NCBI RefSeq assembly: GCF_053078305.1
Contig: NZ_CP166879.1
DNA: 64,000 bases
Reading direction: 5' to 3' (one strand)
Below, piece after piece: positions 44,100 to 45,679 of this stretch. Numbering within the stretch: position 1 is the stretch's first letter; each line of letters begins with the position of its first letter. The translations under genes were made by a program, and so were the position numbers. The notes beneath the pieces were generated by a model that worked only from the letters and a program-made list of their open reading frames with translations, was not told the origin of the DNA and did not search any database.

Positions 44100-44507
44100 T
44101 CACCCCGCCCGATGATGACAGCAGCCGGAGAGATTTTCGATAATCGGGCAGTCGGCGCTGTCATCACCGGGGCAGGCATTCGCCAGCGCCAGTAGCTGGT
44201 TGCGCATGGATTGCAGTTCTTCGATATGCCGTTCGATCTCCGCCACCTTCTCCAGCGTACGACGTTTGACGTCGGCACTGTGACGCTGCGGGTCGTTAAA
44301 CAGATTCACCAGCTCGCCGCTCTCTTCCAGGTTAAAGCCCACCTGGCGCGCCTGGCGCAGTAAGGTCAATTCATTGAGATGCTGCTGCGTGTAGGTTCGA
44401 TAACCATTTTCGCTGCGCATCGGCGGCGTCACCAGCCCCTTCTCTTCATAGAAGCGAATGGCTTTGCTGGTCAGGCCGGTAATTTTTGCTACATCGCTAA
44501 TGTTCAT
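44100..44507 (-). CDS. cueR: Copper-responsive MerR-family regulator
   Basis: 135 aa with N-terminal MerR HTH and C-terminal metal-binding Cys pair (CPGDDSADC...CC). Confidence 0.95.
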
Positions 44508-45679
44508 CGTTCGCGCAACGCCTCCTGTGCTTTGTTAAAGGGTTTCAACAGATAATCCAGCACGCTTTTTTTGCCGGTGCGGATATCGACCGTCGCCACC
44601 ATACCGGGGAATATCGGAAACTGCTGTTTGCTTTTGTTTTCCAGATGGTTGCTGAAAGTGCGAATGTACACCCGATAGTAATAAACATCGCGCCGCACTT
44701 CATCCTGCACGGTGTCTGGTGATATCACCGCTACTTCTCCCGGCAGACCGCCGTAGATGGAGTAATCGTAGGCAGTTATTTTCACCAGCGATTTTTGCCC
44801 CGGATGGATAAACGCCACATCGCGCGGGGAGATTTTTGCCTCAATCAGCAGTTGCTCATCCAGCGGCACGATGGTCATCAGTTTACCACCGGGGGCGATG
44901 ACGCCGCCAACCGTGGTGACGTCAATATCCTGAACAATGCCACGAACTGGCGCAGTAAAGTTGAGCCTGGTGAGGGAGTCTTCACGCCCACGGATCACCG
45001 AACGCTGGGTTTCCACTTCCGCATTGGCTTTCGCTAACTCTTCCCGCGCCTGAACGTAGTATTGCGTGCGCACGTCGCTGAGTTTGTTTTCCAGTTCATT
45101 GGCCTGGCGTTGCAGGCGCAGCACTTCGACGCTGCTCGCCGCCCCCTGTTTCACCAGCGGCTGGGTCATCGCCAGTTCACGGTTGACCAGGCTAATCCCC
45201 TGCGTCAGCCCGGTGGTGGCTTTGTTCAACCCGTCGCGGCGAGTGTTGTACAACGCCGTTTCCGACTCGATAAGTTCGGGGAATTTATTCAGTTCGTCAG
45301 GGAAGACCAACGGTTTATTGCTCACTTCCGCCCGCAGCCGCGCCGAGGTTGCCAGCGCAGCGTACAGCCGCGACATCGCTTCCTGGACGTCGGATTCCGT
45401 TTTAGTGCGGTTAAGCTGCGCCAGCGGCTGGCCCTGTTCGACAATATCGCCAACTTTCACGTTCAGATGATACAGAATTCCGCCTTCCAGCGACTGCACC
45501 ACCTGTTCGCGCCCGGAAGGTTCTACCGTGCCGCTGCCGGTGGTGACTTCATCAAGCTGGAAGTACCACGCCCAGCCGAGAAAACAGAGCAGCATCACAG
45601 CGGTAACGCGTACCGCCAGCGCCGAACGCGGCAAGCGGGGTTCAGTCAGGCCACGGTTGTATTGCAGTTGTCCGTTCAT
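44504..45679 (-). CDS. Type I secretion periplasmic adaptor (HlyD family membrane fusion protein)
   Basis: 391 aa: cytoplasmic N-terminus, one TM helix ([14 protein letters not shown]), long coiled-coil and lipoyl/beta-barrel regions; ATGA-coupled to the upstream ABC gene. Confidence 0.88.

Follow-up and report, generated by a model that had tools for sequence, protein, structure and literature searches.

The gene cueR, which encodes a Cu(I)-responsive regulator of the MerR family, lies directly 3' of the last gene of a type I secretion system (T1SS) in a stretch of 64,000 nucleotides from contig NZ_CP166879.1 (assembly GCF_053078305.1), which we call the window. The start codon of cueR overlaps the stop codon of the preceding gene, which encodes a periplasmic adaptor of the HlyD family. 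The minus strand at this junction reads ...GCGCGAACGATGAACATTAGC... and, as given elsewhere, ...GCGTTGCGCGAACGATGAACATTAGC..., and both the sequence read directly and the list of open reading frames (ORFs) confirm, at exact coordinates, the ATGA overlap reported in the original prediction, which had been made from the sequence alone. The features of the junction and of the genes upstream of it are listed below.

44100..44507, minus strand: cueR, Cu(I)-responsive MerR-family regulator, 135 amino acids (ORF list)
44504..44507, minus strand: ATGA stop/start overlap of 4 nucleotides, with the adaptor TGA at 44506-44504 and the cueR ATG at 44507-44505 (sequence and ORF list)
44504..45679, minus strand: gene for the HlyD-family T1SS periplasmic adaptor, orthologue of hlyD28/Z0635, 391 amino acids (ORF list)
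44508..44603, minus strand: terminal 96 bp of the adaptor gene, of which K-12 and about 82% of E. coli retain a frameshifted relic upstream of cueR (megablast and alignments)
44521..44526, minus strand: Shine-Dalgarno (SD) sequence AGGAGG for cueR, ending 13 nucleotides before the ATG
44667, minus strand: transcription start site (TSS) of cueR, by homology to E. coli EDL933, 160 nucleotides before the ATG, within the adaptor gene
44675..44680, minus strand: -10 element TACTAT, 7 nucleotides upstream of the TSS, in codons Tyr334-Tyr335 of the conserved DVYYYRV motif
44698..44703, minus strand: putative weak -35-like hexamer ATGAAG, with three of six matches and a 17-bp spacer, assigned from the position of the TSS
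45676..47838, minus strand: gene for the T1SS ATP-binding cassette (ABC) permease/ATPase, orthologue of hlyB28/Z0634, of the LssB type (TIGR03375, 838 bits, cutoff 693)
47842..64000, minus strand: 3' 16 kb of a giant repeat adhesin gene of the siiEA/rtxB28 type, running past the window edge (ORF list)

The cueR and adaptor genes are genuine and full length. The CueR translation matches the NCBIfam equivalog NF007590 with 308 bits (cutoff 244) over residues 1-135 of 135 and TIGR02044 with 206.6 bits (cutoff 147.4), and the gene is annotated as cueR by the Prokaryotic Genome Annotation Pipeline (PGAP) in all related genomes. The protein contains C112 and C120 (...ANAC(112)PGDDSADC(120)PII...), the Cu(I) ligands in the CueR structure. 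The adaptor scores 328 bits against TIGR01843 (cutoff 208.65) in an alignment that reaches the last profile position (422/422), and its C-terminus, ...RER followed by the stop codon, ends at the same residue as all 77 of 77 orthologues from outside Escherichia. Its T1SS context is confirmed by the neighboring LssB-type ABC transporter and giant adhesin in the window, and by a TolC-family gene that lies outside the window and was seen in the Res13 genome. The adhesin gene has no in-frame stop up to position 63999, which rules out a split at the window edge of the kind present in EDL933.

The locus is O-island 28 (OI-28) of enterohemorrhagic E. coli (EHEC) O157:H7 and many other E. coli. It has the same gene order from ybaT to cueR as EDL933 and high identity to that strain, and the adaptor gene is 97.8% identical at the DNA level to its counterparts in O157:H7 genomes. 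The order in Res13 is copA and, divergently, glsA-ybaT, followed by genes for a TolC-family outer membrane protein, SiiEA (18.9 kb), the ABC transporter, the HlyD adaptor, and cueR. EDL933 has the same arrangement at the same chromosomal position, with hlyD28 at 603675-604850 (EDL933_RS02795 occupies the adaptor position) and cueR at 604847-605254. However, the adhesin of EDL933 is split into two genes, whereas Res13 has a single siiEA gene, whose product PGAP names 'BapA-related adhesin SiiEA'. The OI-28 genes of EDL933 are tolC28 (z0608), rtxA28 (z0609), rtxB28 (z0615), hlyB28 (z0634) and hlyD28 (z0635), and a December 2025 paper describes them as a functional T1SS/RTX adhesin system in which RstA and Ca2+ activate expression via the region upstream of tolC28 and all five genes respond to RstA (Niu et al. 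2025, PMC12758282). The published RstA box TAATTCAAATTACC lies directly after the ybaT terminator tail in both EDL933 and Res13 (Res13 record L004, 4700-4713, outside the window), about 290 bp upstream of tolC28. The same paper describes the island as absent from K-12 and mentions neither cueR, nor the overlap, nor an internal cueR promoter.

An additional proposal of the original prediction, that the arrangement could tie copper homeostasis to adhesin export, found nothing in its support beyond physical adjacency. The CueR operator dyad CCTTCC-N7-GGAAGG does not occur in the promoter spacers upstream of the T1SS genes or of cueR, as searched in the window and in the ybaT-tolC28 region. The sole perfect operator is the positive control, that of the copA promoter, and two window matches with two mismatches each lie elsewhere and are at chance level. 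We therefore rejected control of the T1SS by CueR. A full-text literature search returned no paper linking cueR with OI-28 and nothing relevant under the name "SiiEA", and the main text of PMC2760140 has no passage on cueR.

In itself, the overlap is statistically unremarkable, because stop/start overlaps of four nucleotides are the most common class in prokaryotes (Huber et al. 2019, PMC6728339) and at least six others join co-directional ORFs in the window. These include the hlyB stop and adaptor start (45676-45679), which form a further ATGA, and qmcA/ybbJ (40239-40242). The overlap is unusual only in joining genes of unrelated function; the arrangement is, in addition, confined to Escherichia. 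The junction sequence is identical in all eight aligned OI-28-positive Escherichia genomes and in five deletion-type genomes. As had been noted at the outset, cueR abuts the last T1SS gene and has no free-standing, intergenic promoter region. There is likewise no space for a terminator between the two genes, so that transcriptional read-through and coupling by termination-reinitiation are physically possible, and transcripts of the adaptor gene may be expected to continue into cueR.

Megablast with positions 43900-45200 found matches in 5424 of 5426 complete E. coli genomes, although the whole query was covered in only 959. K-12-type genomes match only positions 44100-44603, which correspond to cueR and 96 bp of the adaptor 3' end. 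With the adaptor gene alone as query the matches are bimodal: the 959 genomes match over the full length and all others over nucleotides 1-96 only (90.6-91.7% identity), with no intermediate length class among 60 evenly spaced rows. OI-28-positive genomes make up about 18% of the complete E. coli genomes. In K-12 the residual segment is annotated by PGAP as a pseudogene ("frameshifted; missing N-terminus"; record L001, 3405-3502) that overlaps cueR by 4 bp with the same ATGA. The K-12-like upstream sequence, whose end the original prediction had proposed to locate, thus extends about 96 bp into the adaptor gene. The overlap itself is present in K-12 as well, but as part of a vestigial 96-bp relic.

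Alignments of K-12, LS45, HM670, E25 and M70, which belong to different lineages, reveal a common junction, a common 1-bp deletion in an A-run, and common substitutions, which point to one old deletion. Judged from these alignments, K-12 is best described as a deletion derivative, with the overlap as the presumed old state of Escherichia. OI-28 has been described as absent from K-12, yet K-12 retains this relic. The left end of the deletion falls inside a hairpin located 3' of ybaT in OI-28-positive strains (GCGCAGTAC-TGCCT-GTACTGCGC, then CTTTGTCTTT), and the K-12-type deletion takes away the 3' arm and T-tract of this ybaT terminator (K-12 record L001, 3503-3532; Res13 record L004, 4715-4750), whose intact sequence is GCGCAGTACTGCCTGTACTGCGCCTTTGTCTTT. 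The intact hairpin is predicted to fold at -16.6 kcal/mol (z = -5.1). In contrast, the K-12 version folds at -7.1 kcal/mol (z = +0.8), like shuffled sequence. The RstA box is lost with the island.

Reported cueR start sites in K-12 are located at -19, within the relic (RegulonDB v10.5 via PMC10469882), and at -292, inside ybaT (Kim 2012). A sigma54 site has also been located in ybaT, and in enterotoxigenic E. coli at pH 2.5 cueR rises along with ybaST (PMC9628877). Because the ybaT terminator is broken in K-12, read-through from glsA-ybaT into cueR is plausible there, and this acid-resistance operon may read into cueR in most E. coli. The relic substitutions that convert TGGATT to TTGAAT in K-12 were considered as the origin of the -19 promoter and rejected, since the gain from three to four of six matches is too weak.

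Two further observations concern these genomes. The segment comprising cueR and the relic (44100-44603) is 94% identical between the window and K-12-type genomes and 95.8-97% identical between the window and other deletion haplotypes. E. coli core DNA rarely diverges to this extent, which suggests that the haplotypes at the cueR locus are old and recombine. In the urine isolate E. coli E25 (record L010, 1-886), cueR has lost its 3' end to an IS1 insertion and is annotated by PGAP as a pseudogene missing its C-terminus, and this strain presumably has no functional copper sensor.

A scan of species-representative genomes with the adaptor protein identified 80 loci, and cueR is located downstream of the adaptor gene in only three, all of them in Escherichia. 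Escherichia whittamii and Escherichia sp. E1V33 carry an identical cgaTGAacatt junction. The third locus, in E. coli SCPM-O-B-8794 (record L014, about 4065-4125), has a 2-bp TG insertion, and its adaptor frame stops 37 nucleotides before the cueR ATG; judging by this reading frame, it is a natural allele in which translational coupling would be impossible. The scan found no adaptor match in representative genomes of E. albertii, E. fergusonii and E. marmotae. The other 77 loci, at 56-73% identity, are from Enterobacter, Cedecea, Lelliottia, Pluralibacter, Trabulsiella, Rahnella, Erwinia, Acinetobacter, Citrobacter, Buttiauxella, Salmonella arizonae and others. In none of these 77 is CueR encoded within 3 kb of the adaptor, and none has a same-strand ORF of at least 100 amino acids starting closer than +33 nucleotides after it. 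Moreover, 58 of the 76 evaluable loci outside Escherichia have a strong predicted fold (-15 kcal/mol or below) in the first 60 nucleotides 3' of the adaptor, in many cases a GC hairpin with a T tail; the three Escherichia loci reach only -6.0 to -7.3 kcal/mol.

In Klebsiella, copA (KPN_00464) adjoins cueR (KPN_00465) in divergent orientation (Kim 2012). The Escherichia gene is an orthologue with 84% identity to KPN_00465 and has the same downstream neighbors, ybbJ and qmcA. However, copA and cueR are separated in Escherichia by glsA-ybaT and the T1SS locus, and adaptor coding sequence takes the place of the whole cueR 5' region. The divergent copA-cueR arrangement of Klebsiella is known from Salmonella as well. 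From the synteny in other genera we infer that the loss of both the adaptor terminator and the original cueR 5' region in an Escherichia ancestor fused the stop codon to the start codon. Since the adaptor orthologues end in ...GAACGATAA and cueR begins with ATGAAC, the fusion could plausibly have arisen by a deletion via AT(A/G)A microhomology.

Primary 5' ends in EDL933 have been mapped by Cappable-seq under eight conditions (Zehentner et al. 2023, PMC10469882). The sole gene-specific TSS assigned to gene 2800 (cueR, CDS 604847-605254) is at 604687 and was detected in eight of eight conditions, with relative read scores of 4.2-9.0 (PMC10469882 Table S5, file 8). It corresponds to position -160 relative to the ATG and to nucleotide 1012 of the 1176-nucleotide hlyD28 gene. 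Because the window and EDL933 do not differ between about -230 and +10 of cueR, the TSS can be placed at window position 44667. The original prediction had anticipated a promoter inside the adaptor coding sequence, which agrees with the EDL933 map, but had supposed it to be the native K-12-like promoter. The mapped promoter, however, lies outside the segment kept by K-12 and was lost there by the deletion.

Five divergent OI-28-positive E. coli genomes all carry the -10 element TACTAT unchanged. TAYTAY is present in most adaptor orthologues owing to the conserved Tyr codons, and the element was therefore probably latent before being put to use after the fusion. A consensus sigma70 scan of positions 43900-48200 and of the K-12 region found no site upstream of cueR; the scan missed the internal promoter because it scores only seven of twelve, below the threshold. 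Taken by itself, the scan would have pointed misleadingly to a cueR without a promoter of its own, as mapped promoters score only seven of twelve. Promoters embedded in an upstream ORF are common in E. coli, and examples include the ftsZ promoters inside ddlB and ftsA. The cueR promoter resembles these in combining its own internal start with possible read-through from upstream. It differs in that its -10 element derives from a Tyr-Tyr codon pair conserved across the adaptor family, and in that a deletion has eliminated it from most members of the species.

Two plus-strand signals also lie near the 3' end of cueR. A stationary-phase start classified as d-asTSS in the EDL933 data, 605353(-), corresponds to about window position 44001 (+), which is 99 nucleotides beyond the cueR stop codon on the opposite strand and points into cueR (PMC10469882). 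A consensus promoter-like site is located at 44115-44144, inside the 3' end of cueR.

The 200-nucleotide leader that would result from initiation at the internal promoter (-160 to +40) shows no excess of structure over shuffled sequence (z = +1.3), and both AGGAGG and the AUG are unpaired in its centroid fold. No structure sequestering either element was found in this fold, and structure-dependent coupling of cueR to adaptor translation, which we considered, thus has no support in it. With the leader unstructured and its SD sequence and AUG unpaired, de novo initiation at cueR is plausible. An obligatory coupling to adaptor translation is further disfavored by the separate TSS at -160 and by K-12, where cueR works with only the frameshifted relic upstream. 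This evidence is indirect, but it points against such coupling.

RNA-seq data for EDL933 under eleven conditions (Landstorfer et al. 2014, PMC4048457) give mean values, in reads per kilobase per million (RPKM), of 133 for tolC28, 30 for rtxA28, 0.8 for rtxB28, 1.5 for hlyB28, 3.2 for hlyD28 and 8.8 for cueR. Little RNA therefore arrives from upstream of cueR. Whereas tolC28 and rtxA28 are tightly correlated across conditions (Spearman 0.99), cueR and tolC28 are not significantly so (0.46, p = 0.16). This pattern fits an internal promoter rather than read-through from the tolC28 promoter. As a separate observation, mRNA falls about 100-fold from tolC28/rtxA28 to rtxB28/hlyB28 in all eleven conditions, which suggests strong polarity or termination inside the giant adhesin gene under laboratory conditions.

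The explanation that we consider very probable is that the overlap is an ancestral junction of Escherichia at which the 3' end of the OI-28 operon (tolC28, adhesin, hlyB28, hlyD28) meets cueR, that cueR is expressed mainly from its own internal promoter, and that the K-12 arrangement arose by deletion. The adaptor stop codon would have been fused to the cueR start codon in the Escherichia lineage, with loss of the adaptor terminator and the original cueR 5' region. A weak, constitutive promoter of the sigma70 type inside the adaptor coding sequence would drive cueR from position 44667, mostly independently of the operon, and the accessible AGGAGG of the resulting leader would permit de novo initiation. 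Transcripts passing through hlyD28 would necessarily run on into cueR, where the ATGA could permit termination-reinitiation as a minor contribution. A single deletion common to K-12 and about 82% of E. coli would have taken out the operon and the -160 promoter, along with the 3' arm of the ybaT terminator, and have left the 96-bp relic with its ATGA.

Several points weigh against this explanation. The internal promoter has only seven of twelve consensus matches and escaped the consensus scan, and its Cappable-seq signal is modest (relative read scores of 4-9). The measurement of the TSS comes from another strain, EDL933, albeit one with identical sequence here. RNA-seq values are in the single digits, and cueR correlates with hlyD28 (rho = 0.78). 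Some read-through is compatible with that correlation, which is also expected from transcripts starting inside hlyD28. The 13-nucleotide spacing between the SD sequence and the ATG is long, and reinitiation could contribute more than we assume. Finally, the direction of the ancestral event, whether fusion by deletion or by insertion, is deduced from synteny in other genera only.

A different view, put forward in the original prediction, is that cueR is the distal gene of the operon. Read-through from the tolC28 promoter under RstA and Ca2+ control, followed by reinitiation at the ATGA, would then make CueR levels follow adhesin export. The absence of space for a terminator at the ATGA, the similar ATGA between hlyB and hlyD immediately upstream, and the absence in Escherichia of the terminator hairpins that follow the adaptor in other genera all agree with this view, as do the response of all five OI-28 genes to RstA (PMC12758282) and an SD spacing that is suboptimal for de novo initiation. 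In addition, four of five native E. coli ATGA pairs are coupled by termination-reinitiation (Huber et al. 2019, PMC6728339), and the pair described here shares with those their geometry and the SD motif inside the upstream gene. However, such pairs usually encode subunits or pathway partners, whereas CueR and the adaptor are functionally unrelated, and a mapped promoter between the start of the upstream gene and the overlap gives cueR an mRNA of its own. An operon-dependent cueR is difficult to reconcile with a dedicated TSS in every EDL933 condition, with the roughly 100-fold drop of mRNA before hlyB28 and its renewed rise at cueR, with the failure of cueR to track tolC28, and with an unstructured leader in which the SD sequence and AUG are free. 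It is also at odds with the approximately 82% of E. coli that express cueR with no such operon upstream, and with the SCPM-O-B-8794 allele, whose adaptor frame ends before cueR. We consider it unlikely that cueR depends on the operon in this way. A dedicated promoter has been mapped, in EDL933, although some read-through into cueR may occur in addition to it.

The -160 start might alternatively not be a cueR promoter at all, but an intragenic start of unclear function, or one that gives rise to a small RNA or to a short fragment from the C-terminus of the adaptor, with cueR transcribed from elsewhere. Thousands of intragenic starts were reported in the same study (PMC10469882), hlyD28 contains further internal ones at 603894 and 604481/2, and an in-frame ATG is located downstream of the -160 TSS at adaptor nucleotide 1078. 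However, this ATG lacks an SD sequence, no terminator is located between -160 and cueR, and cueR RNA exceeds hlyB28 RNA. The -160 site is also the only TSS within 250 nucleotides upstream of cueR and the only one at the locus detected in eight of eight conditions, which makes this alternative very improbable.

It is hardly credible that the T1SS locus was inserted exactly at the cueR start of a K-12-like ancestor, with the native K-12-type promoter now inside the adaptor gene: although OI-28 has been described as absent from K-12 (PMC12758282), orthologous T1SS loci of other genera lie elsewhere and not beside cueR, and the position of Klebsiella cueR beside copA implies that some earlier insertion occurred, insertion into a K-12-like site cannot explain the frameshifted 96-bp adaptor end with its ATGA in K-12 (alignments rule out that this segment is non-homologous to adaptor genes), the left junction in K-12 cuts a ybaT terminator that is intact in OI-28-positive strains, the -160 promoter is outside the segment retained by K-12 and hence is not the K-12 promoter, and the junction is common to E. 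whittamii and Escherichia sp. E1V33.

On the other side of cueR, about 3.4 kb between ybbJ and cueR (window 40700-44100) is missing from K-12, where the two stop codons abut. This segment varies independently of OI-28, as strain LS45 has the segment and lacks OI-28. It contains the following ORFs.

40875-41237, minus strand: ORF of 120 amino acids
41586-43388, plus strand: YadA-like trimeric autotransporter ORF
43474-43896, plus strand: lipoprotein gene
43893-44096, plus strand: ORF of 67 amino acids

Overall, the overlap was observed correctly but is an ordinary feature, to which its evolutionary history adds a modest twist, and it involves no new mechanism. It is a previously undescribed instance of known phenomena: stop and start codons that overlap as ATGA, a promoter within the preceding ORF, and the scar of a deletion. 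A further idea, which is conceivable but which we regard as doubtful, is that the regulatory wiring of cueR differs between two E. coli haplotypes. In OI-28-positive strains, RstA and Ca2+ would provide a host-signal input to CueR levels, through hlyD28 transcription and reinitiation at the ATGA, on top of the constitutive -160 promoter, whereas K-12-type strains would receive read-through from the acid-inducible glsA-ybaT operon. The latter would fit the -292 TSS in ybaT and the joint induction of cueR and ybaST at pH 2.5. If this is true, one ancient deletion re-plumbed the copper regulator of a model organism, and K-12 is not representative of cueR control in EHEC and other carriers of OI-28.

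OI-28 is not simply absent from K-12, which bears its deletion scar, and OI-28-positive pathogens use a cueR promoter other than that defined in K-12. Deletion of OI-28 or hlyD28, as performed by Niu et al. (PMC12758282), risks removing the cueR promoter and start context, and colonization phenotypes of such mutants could be confounded by altered copper homeostasis. The locus may also provide a small example of promoter turnover, in which a latent -10 element in a pair of Tyr codons probably came to serve a newly fused gene and was later deleted in most of the species, where other start sites would have taken over.

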